Notes under the pieces: generated by a model
Seen by the model: only the letters and a program-made list of their open reading frames with translations
Database searches by the model: none
What the model was told of the DNA's origin: nothing
Shown: piece after piece, positions 15,986-36,077 of the stretch
How the letters are laid out: each line of letters starts with the position of its first letter
How positions within the stretch are numbered: position 1 is the stretch's first letter
Program-made: the position numbers and the translations under genes
Assembly (NCBI GenBank): GCA_016219965.1
Contig: JACRJM010000015.1
Coordinates: 31,857-95,856, forward strand
Direction: 5' to 3'
Origin: Candidatus Schekmanbacteria bacterium
GTDB lineage: Bacteria; Schekmanbacteria; GWA2-38-11; J061
DNA length: 64,000 nt

Positions 15986-15988
15986 GTT

Positions 15989-17889: not shown

Positions 17890-17899
17890 ATAATACAAG

Positions 17900-18817
17900 G
17901 TGCTTCCTATATCTACCCATAATGCCCTTACTATTGATGTTGAAGATTATTATCAGGTAAGTGCTTTTGAACATGTGGTTTCATACAGCGAATGGGGAAA
18001 TTATCAATCTCGCGTTACAACAAATACCTTAAAGATCCTTAATCTTCTTGATGAATCAGGAACAAAAGCAACTTTTTTCATACTTGGGTGGATAGCTGAA
18101 AAGTTTCCTGAGATAGTAAGACAAATTAAGGAAAAAGGTCATGAAATCGCAAGTCACGGTTATAAGCATTCAATAATTTATAATTTTACTCCTGAGGAAT
18201 TCAGAAATGATTTAAGAAAATCAAAATCTATATTAGAAAATTTGGTTGGAGTAAAAATAAAAGGATATAGAGCCCCGAGTTTTTCCATTACACATAACTC
18301 GATTTGGGCTTTAGAGATATTGTCTGAAGAAGGATTTGAATATGACTCAAGTGTATTTCCTATTTATCATGATCGCTATGGGATTCCATCAGCACGTTTT
18401 CACCCTTATAAAATTTATCTAAATAATGGGAAAACAATATTTGAATTTCCTCCACTTACGTATAGGTTTTTTGGAAAAAACTTACCGCTTGGAGGAGGAG
18501 GTTATATGAGACTTCTACCAGTACGCCTAATGATATGGCAACTGAAGAGAATTAATTTATGTAATATTCCAGGAGTTATTTATTTTCATCCGTGGGAGCT
18601 TGATCCAAACCAACCATTTATAGATTCTGGAAGTAAGCTAACTAATTTAAGACACAAAATTGGTCTAAAGAAAATGGAGGAGAAAATAATAAAGCTTTTA
18701 AAACATATAAACTTTAGTTCTATTGATTTCATCATTAATAACTATTCTTTCAATGATAAGGTTAATATTGCTGGCTTGCTAAGTAATAATTCTCATAAAA
18801 AATTAATAAATCTATAG
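17900..18817 (+). CDS. Polysaccharide deacetylase family protein (XrtA/PEP-CTERM-associated type)
   Basis: LTIDVEDYYQ, TFFILGW and EIASHGYKH motifs of the NodB/polysaccharide deacetylase fold. GTG start. Confidence 0.7.
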   Translation: MLPISTHNALTIDVEDYYQVSAFEHVVSYSEWGNYQSRVTTNTLKILNLLDESGTKATFFILGWIAEKFPEIVRQIKEKGHEIASHGYKHSIIYNFTPEEFRNDLRKSKSILENLVGVKIKGYRAPSFSITHNSIWALEILSEEGFEYDSSVFPIYHDRYGIPSARFHPYKIYLNNGKTIFEFPPLTYRFFGKNLPLGGGGYMRLLPVRLMIWQLKRINLCNIPGVIYFHPWELDPNQPFIDSGSKLTNLRHKIGLKKMEEKIIKLLKHINFSSIDFIINNYSFNDKVNIAGLLSNNSHKKLINL

Positions 18818-18832
18818 TTAGATAATTAATTT

Positions 18833-20311: not shown

Positions 20312-20323
20312 GAAGATTTACCT

Positions 20324-22018
20324 ATGTATCGATTAAAAAAAATTAGAGAAATAATGAGTAACAGAAAAAAAGAAATTATTCTTCTTTGTTTGATAATGGT
20401 TGTTGGATTTATTTTAAGGGTATGGAATATCTATCATAATTTGCCTTTTCTTCCAGATCCAGATGAACAGATGAATGTAAACAGAGCAGTTGCTTTTGGT
20501 AGTGGTGATTTAAATCCTCATAATTTTAAACATCCAGCAACCCATCAATATATTCTCTTTATACTCTTTGGGATATATTATTGCATTTCTTATGCAGTTG
20601 GAGCTATTTCATCAGTACATGACTTTGAATTAGAGTTTATTTCAGATCCAACAAATTTTTATTTAATTGCAAGACTTTTTATTGTTTTATTAGGAACTAC
20701 AACTCTTTTTTTGATTTATGTTATAGGGAAGGAAAACTATGGAAGTTCAACTGGTTTAATATCATCAATTCTTCTATCAGTTTCTGTTGCGCATGCAACA
20801 TATTTCATTCCCAAAGGAGAAATTCCAACTACTTTTTTTATATGTTTTTCATTTATATATATATTAAGAGTTTGCAAAGAAGGAAAAATAGAAAACTATA
20901 TTAAAGCCGGCATGTTATCCGGATTAGCTCTAGGTACAAAATATTATAGTGGTTTGTTAATAATTCCATTAATTGCAAGTCATTATTTTTATGTCTCTAA
21001 TACTAAATCTCGCATTTTAGATAAAAAAATATTCATAAGCACGTCTGTTATGGGTTTAACTTTCGTTATAACTAATCCATACGTTATTATAGATTATCAT
21101 ACATTTTACGAACATTTTATTTATCAGCTTAAATGGCCATCAATATATAGTGATACTCTTATTGGTTTTGGTGCTGGCCATATATTTTATTTAAAAAATA
21201 TATTTTCTTTTAGCTTAGGTTTGATATTAGGAATTATTTGCTTTATAGGAGTTATATTTGCTTCTTATATACATTCCAAGACTGATATTATTATTTTGTT
21301 ATTTATAATACCATTTTATTTTTTGTTGGGATTAACAAATTTACCATATTATAGATATTTAATTCCTATCATTCCTCTTGTTGTTTTGTTGGGTGCAAGG
21401 ACTGTAAATGTGTGTTTTCAGTCTTATCTGCAGGGTTTAAATTACAATATTAAATGTATTTGTGTTGTTGCAGTTTTAATCATTTCACCTTCATATAACT
21501 TGATAGAGTACAAAATTAAAACGAGCAAAAAAGATGTTAGAATTGCTGCAAAGGAGTGGATTGAAACAAATATCCCTGAAAATTCGAGAATATTGCTTTC
21601 AGGAAATAATGTTTCTATGACTAAGGCTGCACCTTTAGAAGATAGTCTAAACAGTTTAGAAGAAAAGAAAATAGAAAACAGAAATAGCGGAATTTGGGGA
21701 ATAAGCCTGAAAGGGTTGGAAAAATATTATAAACTTAAAATTGAGGCTAATAAATTGGGCTTAATTAAAAGTAAAAAGTATTATTTAACTTCTACTAAAA
21801 GTGGATTTAATGTTGAACCTATTGAGTACTATAAATTAAAAAAATATGATTATTTTGTATTGTCTGATGAAATAGAAGTCCCTTCATGGAGTCTGAAAAA
21901 AAAGAAAATGTATCCGAACGTAGTTAGCTTTTATAATTCACTTACATCAACATCTGTTTTACTGAAAGCTTTTGAGGACCAGGGAAGAATTATAAAAATA
22001 TATAAGTTAAAACAATAA
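20324..22018 (+). CDS. Glycosyltransferase family 39 / ArnT-like (PMT_2) polytopic membrane glycosyltransferase
   Basis: N-terminal region LRVWNIYHNLPFLPDPDEQMNVNRAV...FKHPATHQY fits the dolichyl-phosphate-mannose-protein mannosyltransferase-like family. Many TM helices. Confidence 0.5.
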   Translation: MYRLKKIREIMSNRKKEIILLCLIMVVGFILRVWNIYHNLPFLPDPDEQMNVNRAVAFGSGDLNPHNFKHPATHQYILFILFGIYYCISYAVGAISSVHDFELEFISDPTNFYLIARLFIVLLGTTTLFLIYVIGKENYGSSTGLISSILLSVSVAHATYFIPKGEIPTTFFICFSFIYILRVCKEGKIENYIKAGMLSGLALGTKYYSGLLIIPLIASHYFYVSNTKSRILDKKIFISTSVMGLTFVITNPYVIIDYHTFYEHFIYQLKWPSIYSDTLIGFGAGHIFYLKNIFSFSLGLILGIICFIGVIFASYIHSKTDIIILLFIIPFYFLLGLTNLPYYRYLIPIIPLVVLLGARTVNVCFQSYLQGLNYNIKCICVVAVLIISPSYNLIEYKIKTSKKDVRIAAKEWIETNIPENSRILLSGNNVSMTKAAPLEDSLNSLEEKKIENRNSGIWGISLKGLEKYYKLKIEANKLGLIKSKKYYLTSTKSGFNVEPIEYYKLKKYDYFVLSDEIEVPSWSLKKKKMYPNVVSFYNSLTSTSVLLKAFEDQGRIIKIYKLKQ

Positions 22019-22026
22019 CAGGCTAT

Positions 22027-23355
22027 ATGAAAAAAATATTGATGATAACGTTCTATTTTCCGCCAGCTAGTACAGCTGCAATTTTTAGGATACTTAGGTT
22101 TACAAAATATTTACCTGCTCTCGGTTTTGAGCCTGACATACTAACAGTAAAAAAGAAATATTATGATAAAAAAATAAGTTTTGATTATACAATTAAAGTT
22201 CCAAATAATATAAATGTTTATCGCAGCAATATGATAGGGTGGATAATCAATTGTTTTAGAATAAAGAGTTGCAAAAATAAAATATCTGATCAACAAACTA
22301 TTAAATCTAAAAATAAAAAGAAAAACTCATTTAAAACCTTTCAACAATTAGTTAAAGCAATATTCTTTCTTCCTGATAGCCAAGTTTGGTGGGTTCCAAT
22401 AGCAATATTAAAAGCTTTACGTATAAATTGTAAAAAAAAATATGATGTTATCTATACTACTGGTGCTCCATTTTCAACTCACTTAATAGGTATGTGTTTA
22501 AAAGGAATACTAAAAAAACCATGGATAGCAGATTTTAGAGATCCATGGGTTAGCAACCCAATAATAAAATGGAAGTTTAAAAGTATTAAAAATATAATTA
22601 AAAAAATGGAACAAAAGGTTTTGGAGAATGCAGATGCAATAGTAACAACAACCGAAGCTCTAGTAGATGATTTTAAGAAAAGATACCCAGATATTTCACC
22701 TGAAAAATATCATGTTATAACGAACGGATATGATTCTGAAGATTTTAAAAACATAGATATTGTAAATTATGAGAAATTTACAATAGTTTATACAGGTGTC
22801 CTTTATAGTTTTCATTCACTAACTCCTTTTTTAATAGCCCTAAATAAGCTTTTTGAACTGAGAAAAGAAATAAGAAATCATATTCAGGTAGTGATAATAG
22901 GACCTTTTAATTCTGAACATGTTAATGAAGTGGGGAAAAATAATTTAAATGATGTGGTGTTTTTGAAGGGTCTAATGCCTCATAATGAAACAATTAAGTA
23001 CATCATAGCTGCGCATCTTCTTCTTGTCACTCTTACAACTGATGAAGATAAATCTTTATTTATTCCAGGTAAAATATTTGAATACTTAGGGTCTGGAAGA
23101 CCTATTTTATCTATATCACCGGAAGGAGAATTAGCTGATATAGTTAGACGTAATTCCGCAGGAATAGTAATTGCACCAAAAAATATTAGAGGTATCTCTG
23201 AAGCCATTTCACTTTTTTATGATGAATATTTAATAGGCAACTATAAGGGTCGCGATAAAGGGTCTATAGAGATTTATGATGCGAAAAACCTTACTAATAT
23301 GTTATCAAAAGTTATAAATGATATTATTCAAAAAAAGGATGAAATCAGAGTTTGA
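22027..23355 (+). CDS. Glycosyltransferase (GT-B fold, family 1/4-like)
   Basis: No TM helices. Size and the C-terminal nucleotide-sugar binding-like region (GKIFEYLGSGRPIL) fit a GT-B fold; divergent. Confidence 0.45.
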   Translation: MKKILMITFYFPPASTAAIFRILRFTKYLPALGFEPDILTVKKKYYDKKISFDYTIKVPNNINVYRSNMIGWIINCFRIKSCKNKISDQQTIKSKNKKKNSFKTFQQLVKAIFFLPDSQVWWVPIAILKALRINCKKKYDVIYTTGAPFSTHLIGMCLKGILKKPWIADFRDPWVSNPIIKWKFKSIKNIIKKMEQKVLENADAIVTTTEALVDDFKKRYPDISPEKYHVITNGYDSEDFKNIDIVNYEKFTIVYTGVLYSFHSLTPFLIALNKLFELRKEIRNHIQVVIIGPFNSEHVNEVGKNNLNDVVFLKGLMPHNETIKYIIAAHLLLVTLTTDEDKSLFIPGKIFEYLGSGRPILSISPEGELADIVRRNSAGIVIAPKNIRGISEAISLFYDEYLIGNYKGRDKGSIEIYDAKNLTNMLSKVINDIIQKKDEIRV

Positions 23356-24587
23356 ATAGTCAATTTATGTTTCTTGTCTTATTCCTTGTTTTTATATTCT
23401 TTGACCCCCAAAATATTTTTACTTTCTTAAAGCCGCTAAGACTTGCATTTTTCTCTGGCTTATTTGTTTTTTTAAGCTCTGCTACTGCAATTATTAAAAA
23501 CTTTTTTAAAACCTCGCAAAGTTGTCTGTTTGTAATGTTTTATCTATTGGCATTATTCTCGGCTTTTAATTCCATTGAGTGGGATATGAGCAAGGGGATT
23601 ATATTTTTTCTATTAAAATGTATTTTACTCTACTTCGCAATTATTTCTATAGTAAATTCCTCGGATTTGCTTAAAAAATTTATTTGGATTCTTATTGTAT
23701 TTATTTCGTTAAATATTATTTTAACTATGTTATTTGCGAAGTTAGGCATTCATGGCTCCCGCGGTGAAGGTTGGAGGCTGAGATCTTTTTTTGCTGGTGA
23801 AGGCGATAGTTCAAATGGTTTTGCAATGATGATGCTCTCCTTTGTCCCTTTTCAATTTTATTCTCTAAACAGACAACAATCAAATGCAAAGAACTTTTTT
23901 TTAATTGTTGCCATCTTTGCAACAATGTTAGGGATACTTAGAACAAGGTCCCGTATGGGGTTTGTAGGTCTTGCTCTAATAATTATAATGATCTTATGGG
24001 ATAAGAAAAAACAAACAAAAATTGTATTTTGTGTACTTGCAGCAATTCTTATTGCAATACCATTTACGCATAAAAGAACGTGGGAAAGGTTTGACACAAT
24101 ATCTTCACAGGTTGAATCAACAGAAGACAAGGCTCTTGGTGGACGGATGATTCACTGGAAGGCTGCATTCCAGATTATAGAAGAATATCCATTTTTTGGT
24201 ACAGGAATTAATACTTTTTTAAAGGCACAAGAGGATGTTTTTATGTATGATAGTGATGCAGACACACAGCATGTTGCTCACAATGCTTACCTTCAAGTAT
24301 GGTCGGAGATGGGAATATTTGCTGTAGGTAGTTTTGCGTTGTTAATTTTGCTTTCAATAAAAGATTCCTGGTTGATTGAAAGAAAACTAAAAGACTATCC
24401 GCAATATTATTCAATCCATATTATTGCAAAATCCGTTCGAATGGGATTAATAGCCTTTCTGCTTTGTTTGATTATGCTGTCAGAACAATATAGCAGAATT
24501 TTATATTTGCTAATTGCCATAGCTGTGTCAGTTAAGAATGTCTATCAATCTGAAATAGCATCAAATATAGTTAAGAAGGAAAGCTAA
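23352..24587 (+). CDS. O-antigen ligase/polymerase-like membrane protein (Wzy/WaaL family; exosortase-system-associated)
   Basis: Ten or more TM helices with a periplasmic loop carrying an H-x-AHNAYLQ motif typical of the O-antigen ligase (Wzy_C) domain. Confidence 0.6.
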   Translation: MNSQFMFLVLFLVFIFFDPQNIFTFLKPLRLAFFSGLFVFLSSATAIIKNFFKTSQSCLFVMFYLLALFSAFNSIEWDMSKGIIFFLLKCILLYFAIISIVNSSDLLKKFIWILIVFISLNIILTMLFAKLGIHGSRGEGWRLRSFFAGEGDSSNGFAMMMLSFVPFQFYSLNRQQSNAKNFFLIVAIFATMLGILRTRSRMGFVGLALIIIMILWDKKKQTKIVFCVLAAILIAIPFTHKRTWERFDTISSQVESTEDKALGGRMIHWKAAFQIIEEYPFFGTGINTFLKAQEDVFMYDSDADTQHVAHNAYLQVWSEMGIFAVGSFALLILLSIKDSWLIERKLKDYPQYYSIHIIAKSVRMGLIAFLLCLIMLSEQYSRILYLLIAIAVSVKNVYQSEIASNIVKKES

Positions 24588-24596
24588 AACAATAAA

Positions 24597-25790
24597 TTGA
24601 TGCGACTATTTCTAAAAATTTTTTTGCAATTATTCTTTGCTGCGATTATTTTGTGTGAAACTGTTATTGGTAATGATAAGTGGAATGATTCATCGAACTC
24701 TAAAATGGCGTCTACACCTAAGTTTTTTGCAGTAGCTCTCGGTAAAGTAGATAATAAGAAACTATGCAATTCGGCGAATCTTTGTGATTTGATGATCTTG
24801 TCACCAACTTCATATCCTAAAATTCCATCTATATTAGAAGAAATAAACAAAAAAATTATCATTTTAGGATACTGCGAAACAATGAGCAGTGATGCAGGCA
24901 ATGAAGAGTTTATGGAACTGAATAAACATGAAGATTGGTTTCTACATGATGGAAATGGGAGAAGAATAAATGTCTATGTCAATAAAACGAATAAAAGATT
25001 TGGAATGGATAAGACAAAAGAAGGCTATCAGGAATGGTTAGCGAATAAGTGTAAAAAAATAATTGTAGCTGGATATGATGGTATTTTTCTCGATAATATT
25101 GGGGTTGTCTTTGGTTATAAAAATCCATTCAAATATTCTGGATTTCCAGTGGGGATTGATAATTCTAATTGGCAAAAGGGATCTATAAAATTGTTAGAAA
25201 AAGTGAAAGCAGCAGTTGGTAAAAAAAGTATTGTGGTTTTTAACCAAATATCAGGAGATGATAATAGTAAATTGTTTGGTTTAATAAAAAATAATAATGG
25301 TATGGATGCTATGACAGCGAGTATAAGTTTCGTTGATGCTTGTGATGGTGCGATGAAAGAAAATTTTTTTGATAACGGCAAGCAAATTAACGAAGAAGCT
25401 CCAAAATTTCTTGATCTTCTGAGAATACTGAATAAAAAAAATAAATATACGTTGTGTCTCAGCAGAGGTAACTCTGCAAGAGACGCAAAAACTCTCTATT
25501 GCCTCTATTTGTTGGCTTTGGATGGAGAGAATTCTTTTTTTTCTTATCAAATTGATTATAAAACGATTACGTGGTTTGATTTTTATGAAAAAGATTTAGG
25601 GGAGCCCTTAAATGAATATTCTAATTATAATGGGATAGGAATGAGAGAATATAAAAATGGGTTAGTTGTGGTTAATTTTAACAATATGGTAAAGCTGGTA
25701 AATTTACCGGGTGAATTTAGTAATGATAAAGGTCAGAAAATAAAAAGACTTACTCTTAATGGTAAAACAGGTGAATTGCTATTTAAGTAA
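24597..25790 (+). CDS. Secreted protein, possibly a GH114-like (TIM-barrel) polysaccharide hydrolase
   Basis: Signal peptide and a YDGIFLDNIG motif resembling GH114/PelA-type hydrolases. Weak. Confidence 0.3.
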   Translation: MMRLFLKIFLQLFFAAIILCETVIGNDKWNDSSNSKMASTPKFFAVALGKVDNKKLCNSANLCDLMILSPTSYPKIPSILEEINKKIIILGYCETMSSDAGNEEFMELNKHEDWFLHDGNGRRINVYVNKTNKRFGMDKTKEGYQEWLANKCKKIIVAGYDGIFLDNIGVVFGYKNPFKYSGFPVGIDNSNWQKGSIKLLEKVKAAVGKKSIVVFNQISGDDNSKLFGLIKNNNGMDAMTASISFVDACDGAMKENFFDNGKQINEEAPKFLDLLRILNKKNKYTLCLSRGNSARDAKTLYCLYLLALDGENSFFSYQIDYKTITWFDFYEKDLGEPLNEYSNYNGIGMREYKNGLVVVNFNNMVKLVNLPGEFSNDKGQKIKRLTLNGKTGELLFK

Positions 25791-26011
25791 AAATATTTGT
25801 AATAATATCAAGTATATAAGCTTTTTAAATTCCCATAAAAAGATACATTATTTATATATGCAAAATATTGCAAATTAAAAAACAAATTATGGATGTACCT
25901 TCCTTATATTATAGGCGAATGAAAGTTGCTTATAGCAATAAAATAGAAATTATTCATTACTTAGCTCTTATTGTACGACTAATTGCAGATAATTAAATCA
26001 ATCAATTTGTT

Positions 26012-27139
26012 ATGAAGAATAAAAAAAAAATATCAGTCATGAATATAATATCTTCACTTAGCGTAGGAGGAAGAGAAAAGGTTGTAATTGATATGCTTAA
26101 TGGTCTTAATGACGATATATTTACATTATCACTATGTTGTCTTAAGAAAGCAGGACCTATCTTAGATTATCTGAAAAATTCAAACATGGAATTATTTTTT
26201 TTAAATAAAAAAGATGGAATAGATTTTGGTATAATCTTTAAGTTAACTAAAATTTTGATGATGCAAAAGCCAGATATTGTTCATACACACAATCCAGGTG
26301 CTTTTATTTACGGGAGTATTGCTGCAAAGCTTGCAAATATACCCGTGATTGTTAACACAGAACATGGATATGGGAATGTTATTTCTTTAAAGAAAAAGAT
26401 GGTCGAGTATTATTTAATTAAACATACTTCAAAGACTATAGCTGTATCTGATGATTTGAAAAAAAAAATATCTGATGGTTCAGAATGGTGTCAAGACAAA
26501 ATAATAACTATCCATAATGGCATTGATTGCGAAAAATTCAAATCATATAAAGAAATAAGAAAAATACGAGAGTCTTTTAATTTTAAAGAGAATGATATAA
26601 TTGTTGGAAATGTGGCAAGGCTCTCGGAAGTTAAAGATCATAGGACTCTTATTGATGCCTTTTCAATTGTTTGCAGTAAATTTAACAATTCTAAACTTGT
26701 AATAGTTGGCGATGGTGAATTAAAGAAAGAGCTTGAGAATAAAGCTTCATGCAATGAACTTAAGGGAAGAGTCTATTTTCTCGGTGAAAGAAAAGATATA
26801 AATGACATTTTATCTATGCTCGATATATTTGTGCTTTCTTCTATAAGTGAAGGAATATCGATTTCTCTATTAGAAGCTATGGCATCAGGAAAGGCTATTA
26901 TAGCAACAAATGTTGGAGGTAATCCTGAAGTTGTAATTGATGGAAAGACGGGAATATTAGTGCCATCATCAAACCCAATTTTAATGGCAAATGCCATAGA
27001 AAGGCTAATAAGCGATAGAAATTTTAGTTTACAAATTTGTGAAGCAGCTAAAAAACATGTTAATGAAAAATTTAGCATAAAAGTAATGGTTAAACATATT
27101 GAAAATCTTTATGAAAATTTATTATTAAAAAATAATTAA
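26012..27139 (+). CDS. Glycosyltransferase family 4 (GT-B, RfaG-like)
   Basis: EGISISLLEAMASGKAIIATNVGGNPEVV is the canonical GT4 E-x7-E region. Confidence 0.8.
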   Translation: MKNKKKISVMNIISSLSVGGREKVVIDMLNGLNDDIFTLSLCCLKKAGPILDYLKNSNMELFFLNKKDGIDFGIIFKLTKILMMQKPDIVHTHNPGAFIYGSIAAKLANIPVIVNTEHGYGNVISLKKKMVEYYLIKHTSKTIAVSDDLKKKISDGSEWCQDKIITIHNGIDCEKFKSYKEIRKIRESFNFKENDIIVGNVARLSEVKDHRTLIDAFSIVCSKFNNSKLVIVGDGELKKELENKASCNELKGRVYFLGERKDINDILSMLDIFVLSSISEGISISLLEAMASGKAIIATNVGGNPEVVIDGKTGILVPSSNPILMANAIERLISDRNFSLQICEAAKKHVNEKFSIKVMVKHIENLYENLLLKNN

Positions 27140-27150
27140 TTATTCGCTAT

Positions 27151-29055
27151 ATGAAAATTATATTAAAAAATCATTATGTTATTGCTGTCAAAATTTTTTT
27201 TTATATTTCGATTTGTTTGAGTTTTATATTGGGGATTATTAGATCATTACTAATTATAGCATCAAATAATTATATTAATTTAAAATTTTATAAAAACATT
27301 TTATTTTCTTTTTTAAATGAAATAAACACATCCATTATTTATATATTTAAATTAACATCAATAGTAATAGTATTTTATTTGATTATTTATTATATCTTCA
27401 AAGATTTTAAAAAAACTATAAGTTTATTAATTGGAATCTTTATAAGTTTATATATTAATTTAACATTAATATATAACTTAAATAGATATACTTTTAAGGA
27501 TTATTGGAAAAGTGAGAAGAACTTTTTTGGATACAGCATACCAAATGCGATTTTCAGTCTAAAGATAATTTCTATCAATTTATTTTTTATTGTATCTATT
27601 ATAATAACTGCTTTTATTTTATTTAAACTACTATTGACTTTATTTAGTTCAAGCAAGTTATCAAATATAAAATCAATAAAATTAAGTAAAAAATATTTTG
27701 TAATATATTTTATTCTATTAATTCTAATATTTATAAATTTAGCGGGTTTTATAATTTGGAGAAACTCAACTAGTGGGATGAATATAGTTTTAATAACAGT
27801 AGATAGTCTTCGCGCGGATCATTTAGGTTGTTATGGTTATAATAAAAATACAAGTCCAAATATTGACAGATTGGCGGATAGCGGTGTTTTATTTTCAAGA
27901 TCAATATCACAAGCACCATGGACATTACCATCATACATGTCTATGTTAACATCAAAATATGTTTATGAACATGGTGTTGATGTAGCAAATAAGATCTTGA
28001 ATCCCCGTGTAATAACATTGGCAGAAATTTTAAGAGAAAACGGTTATTACACAGCAGGGTTTGTCAGTGCACCATTTCTGAAAAGGAGTTATGGTCTTGA
28101 CCAAGGATTTGATGTATACAACGAAGATGCAGCTGCATCCGTGAGTTCATGGTCACACAATGATATTACATCTCCAACTCTTACCAAACTTATTATTAGT
28201 TTTTTCAGACAAAACTCTTCTAAGAAATTTTTTCTATTTCTTCATTATTGGGATCCTCATTATGATTATATTCCTCCAAGTCCTTATGATAAATTGTTTG
28301 ATCCAGGGTATCAAGGTAATATGGATGGTCGTAAATTTAAGTTTAATAACAATTTCAAGGTTGGAATGGATGAAAGAGATTATAATCACATAGTTAGTCT
28401 TTATGATGGAGAAATCAGATGGACTGATATGCATATAGGCCTTTTATTAAAAGAGTTAAACAAATTAGGGTTAGAAAAGAAAACAATTATAATATTTACT
28501 TCAGATCATGGGGACGAGTTTTTAGAACATGGGTATAAAGGGCATGAACATAGTTTGTATGACGAATTAATACATGTACCATTAATCGTTAAATTGCCTG
28601 ATGTTAAGTTTAAAGCTAAAAAAATTGATACGACGGTTGAAACAATTGACATTAGTCCAACCATTCTAAATTTGGTTGGTATAGGTAGTTTAAATGATTT
28701 TAGGGGTGAATCGATATTACCTCTGATTTCAGGGGTTGGGGAATATACAAATTCTAAGGCAATTAGTGAAACATCTAAAGGTTTTTATGGTGAATATAAG
28801 TCTATAGAGATAGATAAGGTTAAATATATTGTTCGGTCAGATAAAAAAAATGAATTATACGATTTAAAAACTGACCCAACAGAGAAAAAAAACATCTATA
28901 AGGAACAATCAGAGTTAGGTAAACATTTCGAAAGTGAGATCTATAAACATTTATATCATAGAAATTCTGCTGATGATTCTAAAAAAGCTTTGATAAATAA
29001 TAAAATAAACAAGGAAACATCTGAGCAGTTAAAAACGCTTGGGTATATAAATTAA
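27151..29055 (+). CDS. Membrane-anchored sulfatase-like protein (alkaline phosphatase superfamily), paralog of 272-2116
   Basis: About 5 N-terminal TM helices, then VDSLRADHLGCYGY, SQAPWTLPSYMSMLTSKY and DHGDEFLEHGYKGH (sulfatase C-terminal His cluster). Confidence 0.65.
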   Translation: MKIILKNHYVIAVKIFFYISICLSFILGIIRSLLIIASNNYINLKFYKNILFSFLNEINTSIIYIFKLTSIVIVFYLIIYYIFKDFKKTISLLIGIFISLYINLTLIYNLNRYTFKDYWKSEKNFFGYSIPNAIFSLKIISINLFFIVSIIITAFILFKLLLTLFSSSKLSNIKSIKLSKKYFVIYFILLILIFINLAGFIIWRNSTSGMNIVLITVDSLRADHLGCYGYNKNTSPNIDRLADSGVLFSRSISQAPWTLPSYMSMLTSKYVYEHGVDVANKILNPRVITLAEILRENGYYTAGFVSAPFLKRSYGLDQGFDVYNEDAAASVSSWSHNDITSPTLTKLIISFFRQNSSKKFFLFLHYWDPHYDYIPPSPYDKLFDPGYQGNMDGRKFKFNNNFKVGMDERDYNHIVSLYDGEIRWTDMHIGLLLKELNKLGLEKKTIIIFTSDHGDEFLEHGYKGHEHSLYDELIHVPLIVKLPDVKFKAKKIDTTVETIDISPTILNLVGIGSLNDFRGESILPLISGVGEYTNSKAISETSKGFYGEYKSIEIDKVKYIVRSDKKNELYDLKTDPTEKKNIYKEQSELGKHFESEIYKHLYHRNSADDSKKALINNKINKETSEQLKTLGYIN

Positions 29056-29090
29056 ATTTCAGGAGATAATTATTAAATATTTTATCAGGC

Positions 29091-29109
29091 TACTATCAGC
29101 ATGATAGTA
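29091..29109. promoter_or_regulatory. Perfect 8-bp inverted repeat TACTATCA-gca-TGATAGTA in an intergenic region
   Basis: Read directly. Lies 36 nt after the sulfatase-like stop and 70 nt before the next GT4 start. No T-tract follows, so an operator is more likely than a terminator. Confidence 0.3.
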
Positions 29110-29179
29110 ATCTAAAATCATACTAATGAAAAATGCAAAATATTTAGAAACCCCACATAAAAAAAGTAAATAGTATTCA

Positions 29180-30295
29180 ATGTCAAAAATGAATGTATTA
29201 CATTTAATATATTCCCTACATACTGGTGGTGCAGAAAAAGTTATTGAAAATTACTCAAAATTTCATGATAGGAATTTTTTCAAGCCAATAGTTTGTTCTA
29301 TAACGGATGGGGGAATAATTGTAGATGAAATAAAAAAAACAGGAACAGACGTTTTTTTGCTCAACAAAAAAGGGATGTTTGATGTAAGCGCAGTTTTGCG
29401 ATTAGCAAGGATAATTAAATCACAAAATATTCATATCGTACATGTCCACAATTTCTCGGCAAATTTTTGGGGAACTATAACGGCGGTTTTATGTGGCGTA
29501 CGTTTTATAGTAAGAACTGAGCACAGTATCATTAATAAACGCAAGAGTTTATTCAGGATCAAATATTTCATTAATTCATTATTAGATATTTTTCAAAAAA
29601 AAATAATTTGCGTATCTGAAGAAGTTAGATCAGTGCATGTTAAGAGAAATACCTTGTCTCCTAAAAAATATATTACCATTTATAATGGTGTTGATTCACG
29701 TATTTTTAATGATAGTTATGAAACTTCAAAATATTTTAAAGAATTTAATATAGAAGCAGGTTGTAAAATAGTTGTTAAAATTGCGAGCTTAACTTCACAT
29801 AAAGGTCATGAATATTTTTTGAGGGCTGCCAAGAAAGTGCTAGATGAAGAGAAGAAAGTACTTTTTATTATTGTGGGAGATGGGCCAAGAAAAGATGAAT
29901 TGACAAAACTTGCTAAAGAGCTTGGGATTAAAAATAGTGTTGTATTTACTGGTGTTAGAAAAGATATTAATGGGATTTTAAAACTATCTGATATATTTGT
30001 ACTTTCATCTCTTAGGGAAGGATTTCCTATAACTATTCTTGAAGCAATGGCTGCTTCAAAGCCTGTTATTGTTACTAACGTTGGTGGCACTCCAGAAGCT
30101 GTAATTGAAGGAGCAACCGGATTAATTGTTCAACCAAAGGATGAAATGGCTATGGCAAAGGCAATTCTTCTCTTGTTAAGAGATGAGAAACTAAGACAAA
30201 TAATGGGAAAAAAGGGTAGGGAAAGGTTTGAGATAAATTTTAAAGCTGAATCTATGGTCCGGAAAACAGAAGATGTTTACAGAACATTTGTATAG
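29180..30295 (+). CDS. Glycosyltransferase family 4
   Basis: EGFPITILEAMAASKPVIVTNVGGTPEAV GT4 signature. Confidence 0.8.
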   Translation: MSKMNVLHLIYSLHTGGAEKVIENYSKFHDRNFFKPIVCSITDGGIIVDEIKKTGTDVFLLNKKGMFDVSAVLRLARIIKSQNIHIVHVHNFSANFWGTITAVLCGVRFIVRTEHSIINKRKSLFRIKYFINSLLDIFQKKIICVSEEVRSVHVKRNTLSPKKYITIYNGVDSRIFNDSYETSKYFKEFNIEAGCKIVVKIASLTSHKGHEYFLRAAKKVLDEEKKVLFIIVGDGPRKDELTKLAKELGIKNSVVFTGVRKDINGILKLSDIFVLSSLREGFPITILEAMAASKPVIVTNVGGTPEAVIEGATGLIVQPKDEMAMAKAILLLLRDEKLRQIMGKKGRERFEINFKAESMVRKTEDVYRTFV

Positions 30296-30302
30296 GAAAT
30301 TT

Positions 30303-31526
30303 ATGTTAAAAAAAAGAAATTATTTGAATTTATTTTTTTGTATTTTATTTTTATTAGCCAACCCACCTTCTTCAATTTCCAAAATATTTTATGTAAGTAA
30401 ATCTGGAAATGACCATAATCCAGGTACAAGTGAAAAACCTTTCTACTCTATTCAGAAATCAGTAGATTCTTTAAAACATGATGGAGATGAAATATTAATA
30501 TTCCCAGGAGATTATTATGAGTCGGTTTTAATTAATAATTCAAAAAAAATAATTGGCGTTAAAATAAAAAGCACAGATGAGATAGTTAATATTTTTCCAG
30601 ATGATACAAAGCCTGCATTGACTTTAAAATACGCTATTAATTGGAGAATTGAGGGAATAAACTTTTGCGGAAATAATGCAAAAGATATTGTATTAATATA
30701 TAGGTCACCCGGAAGCATTATAGAAAATTGTATGGTTAGTGGTGGCAGTAGCAGCAGCATTGCTTTCAGAGCTGTATATATTCTGAGTTCACCAAACTTT
30801 GTAATAAGTAACTCCACAATTGATGCATTTTCTGAGAATAACATAATGGCTTTTATGTCAGAGAACTTGTTAATTAAAGGAAATAATTTGAGCAATTCGA
30901 ATGCTATAACAATTGGTTTTGATGCAGGATGTAATTATACTGTTTGCGAAGAAAATTATATACACGATAGACTCTTGCCTGGAATAAAAGAAAGAGTAAT
31001 TATTCAGTGCAGAGAAAACATTGGTTCAACGATAAGACGCAATCTGATTGTTGAAAGACAAGATAACTCTTTCTTAGATGCGATTTTGATAAGAGGACCT
31101 GGAAATCCTTCAAAAAGCGTTTTGGTTGAAAATAATACATTGATTGGTCCTTCATCGCAGACGGCCATTGGGATTGCAGCGAACACATTGTCATCTGTAT
31201 GCAGAAATAATATTGTGGTTGGATTTAGAAATGCTATAAAAGTTAAATTTCCTTCTACACCATTAGCTAAACCTGAAGTTAAAGTGGATTGTAATGATTT
31301 CTATAATATCGCTGGTTCAGTTTATGATGATAATGTTGGTCTATGTAAGATAGGTAGCGCAAATATATCGAGTGACCCACTTTTTTCAGATACAGTGTAT
31401 TATAAGCTAAATCCAGGAAGCCCCTGTATTGACTCCGGGGATCCATCTTCAGCATTGCTCCCTGGAGGTGGAAAACGTATTGATATTGGCAGGCATGAAT
31501 ATTATCAGCAAGTGCAATTGCCATAG
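30303..31526 (+). CDS. Secreted right-handed parallel beta-helix protein (pectin-lyase-fold), paralog of the N-terminal ~400 aa of 48012-50849
   Basis: Signal peptide, then KIFYVSKSGNDHNPGTSEKPFYSIQKSVDS. Beta-helix repeat blocks align with the 945-aa paralog (ENCMVSGGSSS/ENCTVSGGSTS, EENYIHDR, IIQCR.N.GS). The ATG at 30303 is preferred over 30273, which would overlap the upstream gene. Confidence 0.55.
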   Translation: MLKKRNYLNLFFCILFLLANPPSSISKIFYVSKSGNDHNPGTSEKPFYSIQKSVDSLKHDGDEILIFPGDYYESVLINNSKKIIGVKIKSTDEIVNIFPDDTKPALTLKYAINWRIEGINFCGNNAKDIVLIYRSPGSIIENCMVSGGSSSSIAFRAVYILSSPNFVISNSTIDAFSENNIMAFMSENLLIKGNNLSNSNAITIGFDAGCNYTVCEENYIHDRLLPGIKERVIIQCRENIGSTIRRNLIVERQDNSFLDAILIRGPGNPSKSVLVENNTLIGPSSQTAIGIAANTLSSVCRNNIVVGFRNAIKVKFPSTPLAKPEVKVDCNDFYNIAGSVYDDNVGLCKIGSANISSDPLFSDTVYYKLNPGSPCIDSGDPSSALLPGGGKRIDIGRHEYYQQVQLP

Positions 31527-31527
31527 A

Positions 31528-31559
31528 GTTAGCGAGCGAATTCAATATAATGACAAAAT
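31528..31559 (+). repeat. Copy A of a 32-nt repeated element, GTTAGCGAGCGAAT-N8-ATGACAAAAT
   Basis: 28/32 identical to the element at 44256-44287. Copy A starts 2 nt after the beta-helix gene stop and opens a 25-codon ORF beginning MTK. Confidence 0.5.
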
Positions 31560-31627
31560 TCTTACATTATGAAGAATCCCTATCTCATGTTGTGGTAGTA
31601 TCAATTTATTTAAGTGATGAATAATTT

Positions 31628-32854
31628 ATGGCAATTAAAGTTGCTTATATTGTTGCAAGGTTCCCATCTGTGTCTCAGACATTCATACTTAGAGAGATTT
31701 TGGAATTATGTAATCAAGGTTTTGACATAACGATATTTCCTCTAAAATCTAAGCCAGACAAGCTTACTCACAATGATGCAAAAAAGGTCTTAAATAAAGT
31801 TTATAGTATTTCACCATTTTCAATAAAAGTACTAATGTCTCAAATTTATTTTTTTCTTACCTCACCTTTGAAGTATTTTTATTTGATATATTTTGTCGTA
31901 AAAAATAATTTAAGAAATCCTTATGCGTTAACTATATCACTTGGATTAATTCCAAAATCTGTGCATATTGCACTCATGATTAAACGTCAGAAAATATGCC
32001 ATATCCATGCGCATATGGCTACATTTCAAGCATCATGTGCATTGTTTATATCTGTTCTAACTGGTGTTCCTTTTTCTTTTACTGCACACGCCACTGACAT
32101 TAGAGGAGATCAAGCTGATAGGACTCATGATGGGACAAATATGCTACAGGAAAAATTAGAAAGAGCAAAATTTATTGTTACATGTACAGATGATAATGTG
32201 ATTTATTTGAGAAATAAACACAGAGATATTGCGCCAGAAAAAATTATACTAAACTATCATGGGATAGATACTGATAAATTTTCTCCAAAAAAATGTGAAG
32301 AACAGCCTCCTCTTATATTGGCTGTTGGAAGATTATTAGAATGTAAAGGTTTTGAGTATCTAATAGATGCTTGCAAAATTCTTAGAGAGAAGAATTTGAG
32401 TTTCAAGTGTATGATTGTAGGGGATGGGCCTGATAAAGGTATACTGAAGAAAAGAATTGATAATTCTGACTTGGGAAATATTGTTGAATTAGCTGGCGCA
32501 AAATCGCAGGAGGAATTGATAGAATTGTATAATAAAGCTTCTCTTTTTGTTTTGCCGTCCATTTCTGAAAGTCACTTTGGGATACCCAATACTCTTTTTG
32601 AGGCAATGTCAATGACAGTTCCGGTTATTGTTTCAAATCTTCCAGCTGTTAAAGAGCTTATAGTTTCACGGGATGAGGGTATCGTAATCCCTGAAAAAAA
32701 TGTTTATATTTTGGTTAAGGAAATTGAACAGCTTTTGAGAGATAGTCAGTTAAGGAAAATGATTGGGAAAAATGCTAGAAAAAAGATTATAGAAAACTTC
32801 AGCGTTAAAGAGAAAGTTAAAGAATTAAGATATATTTTTGAAAATAAAATATGA
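31628..32854 (+). CDS. Glycosyltransferase family 4
   Basis: C-terminal ESHFGIPNTLFEAMSMTVPVIVSNL GT4 motif; N-terminal GT-B domain. Confidence 0.75.
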   Translation: MAIKVAYIVARFPSVSQTFILREILELCNQGFDITIFPLKSKPDKLTHNDAKKVLNKVYSISPFSIKVLMSQIYFFLTSPLKYFYLIYFVVKNNLRNPYALTISLGLIPKSVHIALMIKRQKICHIHAHMATFQASCALFISVLTGVPFSFTAHATDIRGDQADRTHDGTNMLQEKLERAKFIVTCTDDNVIYLRNKHRDIAPEKIILNYHGIDTDKFSPKKCEEQPPLILAVGRLLECKGFEYLIDACKILREKNLSFKCMIVGDGPDKGILKKRIDNSDLGNIVELAGAKSQEELIELYNKASLFVLPSISESHFGIPNTLFEAMSMTVPVIVSNLPAVKELIVSRDEGIVIPEKNVYILVKEIEQLLRDSQLRKMIGKNARKKIIENFSVKEKVKELRYIFENKI

Positions 32855-33987
32855 CTTTTATTTTTTATTTACTGATTTTTATAGTTGTTTATGTGTATTT
32901 CGGATACTACTCGTTGCTCCGAATGCTGGAAATCTTTTCAAGGCAAAAAATAATTATTGGAGACTATGTTCCTACCGTTACTCTGTTTGTTCCTGTTTTT
33001 AATGAAGAAAAGATTATTAGAAAAAAAATTGAAAATTCAATTGGAATTGACTATCCAAAAGAAAAAATTGAGATTGTTTTTTATTCTGATAACTCGTCTG
33101 ATGAGACAGATCAGATAATAAATGAATATATAGGTACAGGAATAAAACTTTATAGGGCGGATACTAGAAGGGGAAAAAATTATCTAATAAATAATTCTTT
33201 TGAAAAAATGAATGGTGATATTATCGTATTTTCTGATGCAAATTCACTTTACAGAAAGGATGCTATAAAACTTTTAGTGAGAAACTTTAAAGACCAAACA
33301 GTAGGGTGTGTTTGCGGAAAACTGGTTTATATAAGTGATGCAAATTCTTTAGTCGGCAAAGGGGAGAGTTTATATTTTAAATATGAATCTACTTTAAAAA
33401 GGCTAGAGAGTGTTTTTGGAAGTGTCGTTACTGGAAACGGGGCAATTTATGCGATACGTAAAAATTTACTTTCGCAGTTACCTGAAGAAGTACCTAATGA
33501 TTTTGCTCATCCAATTGAAATAAAAGCAAAAGGATTTAAAGTGATTTATGAACCATTAGCTATTGCTGAAGAAAGGGCTACTGTCTCTACTGCCGAAGAA
33601 TTTAGACGACGAGTTAGAATCGTACTTAGAAGTTTCACAGCGTTTATTTTTTATCAAAAAAAATATAATATTTTAAAAAATTCATATTCCTTTTTCTTTA
33701 TTTCTCATAAGCTTTTAAGATGGTTCATTTTCCCTTTAATGGTTCTTATTTTTTTTATAAATCTTTCTTTGAATGGATATTATGCTAATATATTGTTATA
33801 TATTCAGTGTATCTTTTATATTAGTGCGTTAATTGGTTTTATTTGTCAAAAAATGGACTTTAAAATTAAGGTATTTTATATTCCTTTTTATTTTTGTTTA
33901 ATAAACTTAGCGGGAGCTTTGGGTATATTGAAATACTTTATAGGGAAAAAAGAAATTATGTGGGATATAGCGGAAACAACCCGATAA
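32851..33987 (+). CDS. Glycosyltransferase family 2 (membrane-associated, processive-like)
   Basis: N-terminal TM, GT-A fold with DNSSDET (DxD-like) and FSDANS motifs, and C-terminal TM helices. Its start overlaps the upstream gene by 4 nt. Confidence 0.7.
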   Translation: MTFIFYLLIFIVVYVYFGYYSLLRMLEIFSRQKIIIGDYVPTVTLFVPVFNEEKIIRKKIENSIGIDYPKEKIEIVFYSDNSSDETDQIINEYIGTGIKLYRADTRRGKNYLINNSFEKMNGDIIVFSDANSLYRKDAIKLLVRNFKDQTVGCVCGKLVYISDANSLVGKGESLYFKYESTLKRLESVFGSVVTGNGAIYAIRKNLLSQLPEEVPNDFAHPIEIKAKGFKVIYEPLAIAEERATVSTAEEFRRRVRIVLRSFTAFIFYQKKYNILKNSYSFFFISHKLLRWFIFPLMVLIFFINLSLNGYYANILLYIQCIFYISALIGFICQKMDFKIKVFYIPFYFCLINLAGALGILKYFIGKKEIMWDIAETTR

Positions 33988-34019
33988 TTTTATTAAAATT
34001 ATAATTATGCAAATATTAT

Positions 34020-34607
34020 ATGGAAAATAGAAAGAACTCAACTCCAAGAAACAATCCAAAAGTCACAGATTATTTTGAGGTGCTTAGGTTTATTTTCTCA
34101 TTTTCTCTTTATAAGGAGCTGATATTTAAATTCGCTTATTTTATTCATGATCATGTGGCTCCTTTAAAAGAAATGCATATAGCAGGTAATCCTCGTATTC
34201 ATCCGTCTGCATCATTGCGGTGCGGTAAAAATATCTATTTGGGAAATAATTCACATATTAACCAGTTTTGCTGTGTATGGGCAAGCCCGGAATCAAAAAT
34301 TGTTATAGGTGATAATTTATTAATGGGGCCTGGCGTAAAGATATTTTCTTCAAACCATGGGACAGATAAAAATACTCCGATGAATCTTCAAAAATTTTCT
34401 GAGAAAGATATAAAAATTGGCAATGATGTTTGGATAGGTGCAAATTCAGTAGTCCTTTCCGGTGTTGACATAGGAGATGGTGTAATTGTTGCTGCAGGTT
34501 CAGTTGTAACGAAAGATATTCCTTCATTTACTATAGCTGGAGGTGTACCTGCAAAAGTTATTAAGCAAAGAGAGAAAAAAATCCTTGATGAAATTATAGG
34601 TAAATAA
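34020..34607 (+). CDS. Hexapeptide-repeat acetyltransferase (left-handed beta-helix, WcaF/maltose O-acetyltransferase-like)
   Basis: Tandem hexapeptide repeats ([31 protein letters not shown]). Confidence 0.75.
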
Positions 34608-34609
34608 CT

Positions 34610-35449
34610 GTGAGTAATAAATCTAAAAGAGATACATTTTTTTTTATTGTAGTTCTAATTACGTTTCTTCTACTTTACAGTAAAACGATTATTTGGTTAG
34701 GAAGTCGATGGTACAATGATGAGGATTACTCTCACGGACCATTAATTCCACTTGTTTCAGGTTATCTTATATGGATAAAAAGGGACAAACTAAAGCAAAT
34801 AGAACTATCGACAAATATAGTAGGGCTCTATTTGCTGATCGTGTCTCTTTTAATCCATGTCTTCAGTATAAGGGCGGAGGTTAGTTTTACATCAGCGTAT
34901 TCATTAATTTTGTCAACTGCTGGTATAGTCCTTTATTTTTTTGGCCGCAATTTATTTAACGAAGTAATTTTCCCAATCGGTTATCTTGTTTTTATGGTTC
35001 CTTTTTTCCAGTTTATTATTGATCCATTGTCAAATAAACTGAAACTGTTTTCAGCTTACTTGTCAGCAGAAATAATCGATCTTGCAGGTATTCCAGTGTA
35101 TAGGGATGGTGTTATGTTGCATCTTGCTACAGGCTCTCTTGAAGTTGCAAATCCTTGTAGCGGAATAAGATCAATAATATCGCTTTTAGCTCTCGGAACT
35201 ATATTCTCATATTTTTCGACTACTACAATGACGAATAGAATTTTGCTAGTTTGTTCTACAATTCCTCTTGCCGTTGTTGGCAATTTGGCAAGAATAGTTT
35301 TTTCAGGAGTAATGACAAATGCAGGTATAGATGTTACTACTGGATTCATACATACTCTCACTGGTTTAATCGTTTTTGCAGTTGCATTTGCAGGCCTTAT
35401 TGGTGTCAGGAAACTTCTTATATGGAAAAGCGAAATAAAAAATATTTAA
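34610..35449 (+). CDS. xrtA: Exosortase (EpsH; XrtA-type transpeptidase of the PEP-CTERM system)
   Basis: Eight-TM protein with exosortase active-site motifs ANPCSGIRS (Cys), GNLARIVFSG (Arg) and the downstream His region. Followed by EpsI and PrsK/PrsR, opposite PrsT. Confidence 0.8.
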   Translation: MSNKSKRDTFFFIVVLITFLLLYSKTIIWLGSRWYNDEDYSHGPLIPLVSGYLIWIKRDKLKQIELSTNIVGLYLLIVSLLIHVFSIRAEVSFTSAYSLILSTAGIVLYFFGRNLFNEVIFPIGYLVFMVPFFQFIIDPLSNKLKLFSAYLSAEIIDLAGIPVYRDGVMLHLATGSLEVANPCSGIRSIISLLALGTIFSYFSTTTMTNRILLVCSTIPLAVVGNLARIVFSGVMTNAGIDVTTGFIHTLTGLIVFAVAFAGLIGVRKLLIWKSEIKNI

Positions 35450-36075
35450 TAGTTATTGCATGTCTTTCTATTGTGACATGTTATTCATTATTAATATTTA
35501 AACCAAGTGACCGCTCTTTTGTCGCTCAACGCTTAAAAGAATTTCCACGAAACTTTGGCAAATGGGAATTTATAAGAGATGTGGAGATGCAAGAACAAAT
35601 AATAAGCGCACTGGACCCCAGTTCAATAGTTTTTAGAGAATATAGAAATCCTGAAGGCAAAAAAATGTGGCTTTGTATAGTGTACCACCAAAATGATAGA
35701 TGGGGTGCTCATGATCCACAAGTATGTTATAAATCGCAGGGTTGGGATATAGCAAATTATGGTGGCAAGTATGAAACCACTCAGATTCATATAAAAGAAA
35801 CAGATGTTGATATAAACAGATTCTATGTAAGCAAGGGAGGGTTTAAAGAGGTTGTTTACTACTGGTGGTTTGGTTCAAAGAAAAAACAGATGACAACAAG
35901 GTTTCAACAAATGCTTGATCTTGCCATTAATGGAGTTCTTTACGGTTATAACGACAGCGGTTTTATTCGAGTATCGATAAATCTTGAAGAAGGACACGAA
36001 GACGAATGTAAAAAGGCTGGGTATGAATTTGCAAAAGCAGTATCCTCTCTTATAGTAGCCTATCTTCCGGACTAG
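35422..36075 (+). CDS. epsI: EpsI-family exosortase-associated protein
   Basis: Starts at the internal ATG (MEKRNKKY) with an N-terminal TM. The 35251 start in the ORF track would run out of frame through the exosortase. Position immediately 3' of exosortase is typical. Confidence 0.6.
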   Translation: MEKRNKKYLIVIACLSIVTCYSLLIFKPSDRSFVAQRLKEFPRNFGKWEFIRDVEMQEQIISALDPSSIVFREYRNPEGKKMWLCIVYHQNDRWGAHDPQVCYKSQGWDIANYGGKYETTQIHIKETDVDINRFYVSKGGFKEVVYYWWFGSKKKQMTTRFQQMLDLAINGVLYGYNDSGFIRVSINLEEGHEDECKKAGYEFAKAVSSLIVAYLPD

Positions 36076-36077
36076 AA

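Follow-up and report, generated by a model that had tools for sequence, protein, structure and literature searches.

Alkaline phosphatase, the nucleotide pyrophosphatases/phosphodiesterases (NPPs), EptA/MCR-1, LtaS and BcsG attack phosphorus centres by way of a covalent phospho-enzyme, and we know of no characterised member of the alkaline phosphatase superfamily with a Ser or Thr nucleophile whose physiological substrate is not a phosphorus compound. In one group of these relatives (EptA/MCR-1/LptA, LtaS, OpgB, BcsG and GacH) an N-terminal polytopic domain is combined with an outward-facing domain of the alkaline phosphatase fold, and the bcsG and gacH genes sit in envelope-glycan loci. A second group, the S1 sulfatases together with the arylsulfatase/phosphonate monoester hydrolase (AS/PMH) enzymes (SpAS2, 4upl; SpAS1, 4upi; AtPMH, 4uph; RlPMH, 2vqr; AslA), has a formylglycine-forming Cys/Ser and a two-subdomain build with SGSH_C. 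Here we describe p1, a protein encoded in a stretch of 64,000 nucleotides (nt) of Candidatus Schekmanbacteria bacterium (contig JACRJM010000015.1; hereafter the window), and its paralog p2, encoded in the same window. The gene for p1 likewise lies in an envelope-glycan locus, one of the XrtA/PEP-CTERM exopolysaccharide (EPS) type; its product has the layout of the first group, while in sequence, profile and predicted fold it is nearest to the second. The explanation that serves best as a whole, in which our confidence falls a little short of even, is that p1 is a periplasmic headgroup transferase with a Thr nucleophile acting on EPS or on the glycan of a PEP-CTERM protein, and p2 a non-catalytic partner within a module of GT-C glycosyltransferases (GTs).

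Family affinity and active site of p1

p1 is a 100% match to P0001, which comes from a metagenome-assembled genome of Candidatus Schekmanbacteria and bears the name 'sulfatase'; NCBI gives p1 the same label and places its start 26 codons further downstream. Pfam assigns PF00884 (Sulfatase) and SGSH_C to both p1 (E 1.5e-49 and 7e-16) and p2 (E 5.2e-40 for PF00884), and the two catalytic domains are 32% identical over ~450 residues. The solved structures closest to p1 are formylglycine arylsulfatases and PMHs (phmmer; 4upl at E 3.7e-34, and 4upi), with choline and carbohydrate sulfatases next, and neither LtaS nor EptA is among the 60 solved-structure matches listed. An AlphaFold2 (AF2) model of p1, computed from an alignment with 97 homologues, has a predicted local distance difference test (pLDDT) score of 82, and above 90 in the catalytic domain; when this model was compared with the PDB in Foldseek, each of the top 50 matches was an S1 sulfatase or a PMH, at a target-normalised TM-score between 0.61 and 0.75. 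The best NCBIfam models are likewise of the sulfatase type, though all score far below their cut-offs: 157 bits against 481 for an arylsulfatase, and 119 against 433 and 126 against 900 for choline sulfatase and PehA. The EptA/MCR/CptA models give p1 18-23 bits against cut-offs of 404-1250 and p2 16-41 bits, the LtaS model is matched by p2 only (29 bits against 970), and the BcsG model is matched by neither p1 nor p2. Profile comparison with E. coli proteins in hhalign gave the family 99.5% with AslA (E 3e-23, 368 columns), 38% with EptA (E 3e-4), 17% with OpgB (E 1.5e-3) and 0.6% with BcsG (E 0.1, 59 columns), which rules out membership of p1 and p2 in the BcsG, OpgB and EptA families. Judged by these comparisons, the catalytic domain of p1 is a sulfatase-type scaffold outside the LtaS, EptA, OpgB and BcsG families, and its likeness to EptA-type enzymes is a parallel solution reached on that scaffold.

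The sulfatase signature C/S-x-P-x-R falls on T258-L-P-S-Y262 of p1 in three separate alignments, with 4upl (C-G-S-S-R), 7oz8/BT1918 (S-T-P-A-R) and E. coli AslA (S-S-P-T-R), so that the nucleophile position holds a Thr in place of the formylglycine-forming Cys/Ser, and Tyr262 stands both for the sulfatase Arg and for the His of the family. The G-K-W-H of AslA, whose Lys and His handle the sulfate and the aldehyde hydrate, aligns in hhalign with V-S and a gap in p1, where the family consensus is F-V-S-G-P. What p1 retains of the S1/PMH site are the metal-ligand positions D218, D452 and H453 and, in H370, the counterpart of the conserved 'P-H' histidine. Its D-S-L-R aligns with F-D-Q-L-R of 4upl, the D-x-L-R-x-D start motif being common to p1 and the PMH/AS group, and D452-H453, invariant in alignment A1, with D-H-G-D of 4upl. 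To these p1 adds the invariant residues H224, H365, D368, D372, H460 and H465 and the N-terminal membrane anchor, none of which belongs to the S1/PMH pattern. In the AF2 model T258 is the N-terminus of helix 258-267, and D218 and D452-H453 stand at strand ends (Table 1); a helix start and strand ends are the usual sites of the nucleophile and of metal ligands in the superfamily. In a weak hhalign alignment with EptA, T258 lies on the EptA nucleophile (the second Thr of G-T-A-T-A) and S-D-H-G on S-D-H-G, and p1 thus has the Thr nucleophile position and the D/E-Thr-Asp-His metal site of the EptA group, both of which p2 lacks. A Thr nucleophile at such a metal site, as predicted for p1, is the catalytic solution of EptA/MCR-1, LtaS and the nucleotide pyrophosphatases. 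In other respects p1 differs from the EptA group: homology is remote (NCBIfam scores of 16-41 bits against cut-offs of 493-1250), the transmembrane (TM) domain is unrelated and poorly conserved, the catalytic domain has a sulfatase C-terminal subdomain, and transferase activity in p1 is only predicted. In both p1 and p2 the catalytic domain opens with a short match to PF01663. In p1 this match covers the first 70 residues of the domain (E 1.8e-11; 44.7 bits against a cut-off of 23) and no more of the profile than positions 2-70 of 342, and the remainder of the domain is sulfatase-like; the W-T-L-P-x-H of its clade resembles the NPP nucleophile motif T-F-P-N-H.

The original prediction had been made from the letters of the window, and much of it stands. 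Both open reading frames (ORFs) are where it had placed them, their products have N-terminal multi-TM anchors (five helices in p1, three in p2), and the D-S-L-R...C-Y-G-Y, T-S-K-Y and E-H-G-x-x-G-H motifs are present in p1 and p2. Its statement that neither protein has C/S-x-P-x-R is borne out by alignment (p1 T258-L-P-S-Y262, p2 A182-L-S-S-Y186), and we agree that the two are not sulfate esterases, as the formylglycine-forming Cys/Ser and the Arg and Lys/His partners are all missing. A Ser or Thr had been suggested as the nucleophile to look for, and in p1 the alignments point to Thr258. The proposed BcsG/OpgB/EptA/LtaS-type architecture holds for the layout and the Thr position of p1 but not for family membership, and the predicted fold leads to formylglycine sulfatases and PMHs rather than to LtaS- or EptA-type enzymes.

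Two homologue samples were used to gauge how far the altered site is shared: the 120 best homologues, 31-48% identical over the catalytic domain, and 127 representatives of clusters formed at 50% identity. Thr occupies the T258 position in all 120 of the first sample and in 126 of the 127 in the second, and in the first sample the D218 position is Asp in 116/120 and the R221 position Arg in 120/120. Also conserved in the first sample are D218-S/T-L-R221-A-D-H, W-T258-L-P-S/A-H, the cluster of H365, D368, H370 and D372, and D452-H453-G with E456, H460 and H465. With invariant columns recurring in two separate samples, the motifs are not due to chance. When one genome per species was scanned, at least 590 matching stretches came up, the best 80 of which all come from uncultured organisms (Acidobacteriota, Planctomycetota, Myxococcota, Binatia, Aminicenantes, Eisenbacteria, Omnitrophota and others). 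Members are publicly annotated as 'sulfatase' or 'arylsulfatase A-like enzyme', and our literature searches turned up no paper that treats the Thr clade or PEP-CTERM loci with sulfatase-like genes. The clade of p1 is thus large and uncharacterised, and it adjoins the true S1 sulfatases. A further motif, L-x-x-L-G-Y, occupies residues 627-632 of p1 (window 29029-29046), two residues short of the C-terminus; it is near-invariant in the clade regardless of N-terminal architecture (alignment A1) and does not occur in p2.

The five anchor helices of p1 span residues 2-38, 44-83, 86-121, 130-166 and 180-206 in the AF2 model. The N-terminus and the loops at 84-88 and 167-181 carry 10 Lys/Arg in 31 residues, compared with 6 in 45 for the alternate loops. 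Because the lysine-rich loops are predicted to be cytoplasmic, the catalytic domain is predicted to lie outside, and the charge pattern favours an orientation with the N-terminus inside and the catalytic domain in the periplasm. The three N-terminal hydrophobic helices of p2 are predicted to have the same orientation. Anchors of this kind recur in the clade: at least four N-terminal hydrophobic segments were found in 41/120 homologues of the first sample and 50/127 of the second, at least two in 45/120 of the first, and in 6 of the 120 best homologues a PMT_2 domain, of the GT-C type, is fused.

Proposed chemistry and competing readings

Members of the superfamily with a Ser or Thr nucleophile act on phosphorus centres, which argues for phosphoryl transfer, not sulfate hydrolysis, by p1; from its active-site residues we consider this class of chemistry highly probable. 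We propose that p1 would be an inner-membrane protein whose five helices hold the sulfatase-fold domain on the periplasmic side, and that the formylglycine machinery would be replaced by the alkoxide of T258 as nucleophile at a metal site made up of D218, T258, D452 and H453. The enzyme would attack a phosphate ester, not a sulfate ester, by way of a phospho-threonine intermediate. It would take a phospho-headgroup from a membrane lipid and pass this to the growing polysaccharide or to the glycan of a PEP-CTERM protein, as BcsG, OpgB and GacH do. Headgroup transfer is suggested because p1 is co-transcribed with XrtA/PEP-CTERM EPS genes, and an EPS-decorating transferase, by analogy with those enzymes, is our leading if tentative guess, one that we would expect to fail somewhat more often than it succeeds. 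By the same analogy, decoration of a polysaccharide in the manner of BcsG is plausible. The chemistry of PEP-CTERM polymers is almost unknown, and this reading of p1 predicts a specific modification.

Several other readings have to be weighed against it. The public labels 'sulfatase' and 'arylsulfatase A-like enzyme', together with the best Pfam, NCBIfam, PDB and fold matches, would make p1 and p2 genuine sulfatases that desulfate a polysaccharide. Against this, the formylglycine position holds neither Cys nor Ser, neither the Arg of C-x-P-x-R nor the Lys and His of G-K-x-H can be seen, and all NCBIfam sulfatase scores are far under their cut-offs, as with the 157 bits against 481 given above. 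The SulfAtlas authors note that many PF00884 members carry Thr and that these cannot count as sulfatases, oxidised Thr giving a ketone and not formylglycine (PMC5066984). Nor did Pfam and domain scans of the window proteins find a formylglycine-generating enzyme, a SPASM-type maturase or a sulfotransferase. We regard true sulfatase activity as exceedingly improbable and ruled it out as a candidate because the nucleophile and the Arg, Lys and His are missing and the equivalog scores fall below threshold.

Sequence alone cannot tell a hydrolase from a transferase, and the active-site evidence would be identical if p1 were a periplasmic phosphodiesterase, pyrophosphatase or phosphatase in which water resolves the phospho-threonine. 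Such an enzyme might, for example, release a polymer or repeat unit from undecaprenyl-diphosphate, remove a phosphate-linked substituent or recycle what GT-C enzymes leave as a lipid-linked by-product. Its nearest solved relatives are all hydrolases, including the promiscuous phosphonate monoester/phosphodiester hydrolases 4upl, 4uph and 2vqr, most clade members lack a multi-TM domain, the TM domain of p1 is unconserved, as it would be in a simple anchor, and multi-TM members often lie beside large proteins of the PF01663 phosphodiesterase family. However, the recurrence of multi-TM anchors (~39% of members) and the GT-C fusions suggest a membrane-proximal or lipid substrate, and the precedents that share the layout of p1, namely EptA, LtaS, OpgB and BcsG, are transferases. 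On balance we think a hydrolase rather unlikely, while taking it seriously. It is also conceivable that p1 transfers phosphoryl groups to a target outside the EPS, such as lipid A or lipopolysaccharide core, a membrane glycolipid or a periplasmic glucan, and that its position in the EPS locus is incidental or lineage-specific. Homologue contexts are indeed varied, two of them (L001 and L087) being without glycan genes, an association of the family with EPS or exosortase genes is not seen, and no close ortholog of p1 was found in another PEP-CTERM locus by homologue search or in three exosortase-seeded metagenome loci. Yet p1 is packed tightly between same-strand GT4 genes of the EPS run, and P0003, at 46% identity the best non-identical full-length homologue on a long contig (75.8 kb) among those listed, lies in a glycan cluster with GT2, PMT_2 and GT4 genes; we consider a non-EPS target improbable.

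A number of observations weigh against the assignment of p1 as a lipid-dependent transferase that decorates EPS. The TM part of the model has pLDDT values of only 50-73, the TM region is barely conserved, being weakly similar to that of three other members only, and Pfam matches it to no known lipid-binding TM family; residues 1-206 give no EptA_B_N or other Pfam match at E <= 0.01. The TM region may thus be little more than an anchor. Over half of the clade has a signal peptide or single TM helix only, or neither, and a clade of such composition fits ancestry as a soluble hydrolase better than a lipid-dependent transferase. Position 262, Tyr in p1, is His in 88% of the family. In a BLASTP comparison of 31 window proteins with the ORFs of 84 homologue loci, the EPS and exosortase gene families of the window each recurred in 0-3 of the 51 long loci, and after clustering of neighbouring ORFs no family was present in more than 11 of the 84. 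Polytopic neighbours accompany 9/17 multi-TM and 26/76 single-TM members, a crude count that gives no clear separation. A family-wide association with EPS or exosortase genes, looked for by BLASTP and by neighbour clustering, was not found, and the exosortase-seeded metagenome scan gave three loci, with a clade member in 0/3.

Unfused multi-TM members were examined at seven distinct Pfam-labelled loci, which is few: a GT-C gene (PMT_2, PMT or GT87) is present in 5/7 and absent from 2/7, the five often also holding GT2/GT4 genes, further paralogs and large PF01663 proteins. At one further multi-TM locus the member carries the PMT_2 fusion itself. In a Rosetta-stone test, the PMT_2 parts of the fusion proteins showed no detectable closeness to the GT-C proteins of the window, the single match being at 17.6 bits. 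The densest arrangement that we noted is on contig_47509 (L002), where a 22-kb stretch contains five genes for Thr sulfatase-like proteins of 608-666 amino acids (aa); at least two of the five proteins have several N-terminal TM helices. Between these genes lie others for PMT_2, GT87 and Mannosyl_trans4-like GT-C proteins and for ~560-aa unannotated proteins, some of which are polytopic. Large PF01663 proteins (507-704 aa) adjoin multi-TM members at L001 (2259-6351), L085 (3293-5374), L086 (7562-9085) and L088 (6171-8153). This recurrent neighbour looks like a second alkaline phosphatase superfamily partner. The window has no gene of this kind.

Taken across the clade, the idea that the Thr proteins are an independent lineage of phospho-headgroup transferases is a doubtful one, offered as a possibility. 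Such a lineage of periplasmic enzymes would have arisen from a sulfatase scaffold, be widespread in Acidobacteriota, Planctomycetota, Myxococcota and candidate phyla, and be systematically mis-annotated as sulfatase. Together with GT-C enzymes it would attach phosphate-linked substituents to envelope glycans, here PEP-CTERM EPS or its glycoproteins, with p2 as a catalytically dead partner subunit. If it is true, the clade would show a typical S1 scaffold that has changed in nature from formylglycine to threonine, and would form a direct bridge between sulfatases and phosphotransferases within the alkaline phosphatase superfamily. Should its members be phosphoryl-transfer enzymes, sulfatase counts, as used for sulfated-polysaccharide use in Planctomycetota, Acidobacteriota and relatives, would be inflated. 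It is chiefly for annotation, and for understanding how the superfamily evolved, that the clade of p1 is of importance.

The degenerate paralog p2

The two paralogs had been thought equivalent, each keeping its catalytic apparatus, and this proved wrong for p2, in which Ala182 takes the nucleophile position and the Asp-His metal pair is gone. The minus-strand translation of 1556-1570 reads L-S-S-Y-A (residues 183-187), and the A182 codon at 1571-1573 follows from the register. The equivalents of W257, T258, P260, D223, H224, H365, H370 and D372 of p1, positions that vary little or not at all in the family, are lost, as are those of H413, D426, D452-H453 and E456. This loss is confined to p2 and its 94% ortholog P0249; the 50% identical P0250 keeps W-T-L-P-S-H and D-H. 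Comparison of the p2 and P0249 genes gave a ratio of nonsynonymous to synonymous substitution rates (dN/dS) of 0.18, with values of 0.05-0.14 for four neighbouring genes. Because the catalytic residues are lost yet dN/dS is 0.18, the most reasonable explanation from these sequences is that p2 is probably a pseudoenzyme, a protein retained under purifying selection without its catalytic residues. As such it offers a clean example, with P0250 at 50% identity available as a comparison that has the active-site residues. An analogy may be drawn with YejM/PbgA/LapC, also a membrane-anchored, periplasmic protein of the alkaline phosphatase fold related to transferases, whose role is thought to be mainly regulatory rather than that of a transferase. 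The analogy does not extend to specific homology (30 bits against 825), and in p2 the nucleophile and the Asp-His pair have disappeared outright.

The surroundings of p2 point to GT-C enzymes. Around P0249 and P0250 the gene order is conserved: a PMT_2-like protein, the sulfatase-like protein, a ~660-aa protein, a GT2 of ~250 aa and a TPR protein, the ~660-aa protein of the P0249 locus being a weak PMT_2 match. In the window p2 is likewise flanked by genes for PMT_2-type or weakly PMT_2-like proteins (Table 1), and it is probably a non-catalytic partner within a GT-C glycosyltransferase module. Adjoining this module is a gene for a flavoprotein of the amine-oxidase/NAD_binding_8 type that weakly matches UDP-galactopyranose mutase (7399-8847, minus strand). 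A fragment of a similar flavoprotein occurs in the paralog-rich sulfatase-like/GT-C cluster L002 (5109-5555).

The EPS locus and its surroundings

The p1 gene begins 11 nt past a GT4 gene in a plus-strand run at 11519-41191. This run encodes export and chain-length functions (Wza, an outer-membrane protein, Wzz/GNVR and a tyrosine-kinase-type ATPase), an EpsB_2/TIGR03013 priming transferase, the XrtA-system deacetylase TIGR03006, Wzx, Wzy_C, a PMT_2 protein, several GT4s, a GT2, an acetyltransferase, an exosortase, EpsI, PrsK and PrsR; PrsT is encoded on the opposite strand. NCBIfam scores exceed their cut-offs for PrsK (417.7/300), PrsR (544.9/502.6), PrsT (562.5/312.2), the TIGR03013 priming transferase (414.8/393.35) and the TIGR03006 deacetylase (362.2/276.2). 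The exosortase passes the generic TIGR02602 (196/105.55) and is slightly under the XrtA-specific cut-off (188.7/208). Judged by these family matches the locus is an XrtA/PEP-CTERM exopolysaccharide system; a simple regular-expression search found no PEP-CTERM tails in the window ORFs. Coordinates of the features discussed are collected in Table 1.

Table 1 Features of p1, p2 and their loci in window coordinates
Feature	Position	Strand	Evidence
p1, 634 aa, membrane-anchored with sulfatase-fold catalytic domain	27151..29055	+	ORF, Pfam, AF2
p1 N-terminal anchor, residues 1-206, five long helices	27151..27768	+	hydrophobicity, AF2
p1 catalytic domain, residues 207-634, sulfatase-type alkaline phosphatase fold with C-terminal SGSH_C	27769..29052	+	Pfam, AF2, Foldseek, hhalign
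p1 D218-S-L-R221, first metal-ligand Asp (predicted), end of strand 211-217	27802..27813	+	translation, alignment
p1 W257-T258-L-P-S-Y262, Thr at formylglycine/nucleophile position	27919..27936	+	alignments, AF2
p1 H365-Y-W-D368-P-H370-Y-D372, family-specific His/Asp cluster	28243..28266	+	alignment, translation
p1 D452-H453, second metal-ligand pair (predicted), directly after strand 445-451	28504..28509	+	alignment, translation
p2, 614-aa paralog, three N-terminal TM helices, degenerate active site	272..2116	-	ORF, alignments
p2 A182-L-S-S-Y186, Ala at nucleophile position	1559..1573	-	alignments
p2 P434-Y435 replacing the Asp-His metal pair (S-P434-Y435-G for S-D-H-G)	812..817	-	alignments, translation
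Two polytopic proteins directly upstream of p2: 688 aa, PMT_2 (GT-C); 571 aa, ortholog a weak PMT_2 match	2208..5991	-	Pfam
Gene downstream of p2, start only, running off the window	1..239	-	ortholog a 657-aa weakly PMT_2-like protein, then 265-aa GT2 and TPR protein
PMT_2 (GT-C) glycosyltransferase in the plus-strand run of p1	20324..22018	+	Pfam
XrtA/PEP-CTERM-type exopolysaccharide locus holding p1	11519..44075		Pfam, NCBIfam

Several minor features of the window were also noted. As mechanically listed, the exosortase ORF (34610-35449, plus strand) and the EpsI ORF (35251-36075, plus strand) overlap by ~200 nt, an overlap also present at 95% identity in the metagenome fragment L095. The EpsI domain begins at about residue 62-96 of the second ORF, so its true start is probably downstream. 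Two B12-binding radical S-adenosylmethionine proteins flank the EPS region, one at 6029-7402 (minus strand) in the p2/GT-C module and one at 39680-41191 (plus strand) between PrsR and PrsT; both are without a SPASM domain and are thus not sulfatase maturases. Directly upstream of wza is a gene for a PocR-GAF-GGDEF protein (9339-11324, plus strand), an arrangement repeated in L089, which suggests cyclic di-GMP input to the EPS locus. Downstream of the locus lie a 945-aa protein with beta-helix and ASH/Ig-like domains (48012-50849, plus strand) and a type II secretion secretin with a GspC-like protein (55946-59610, minus strand).

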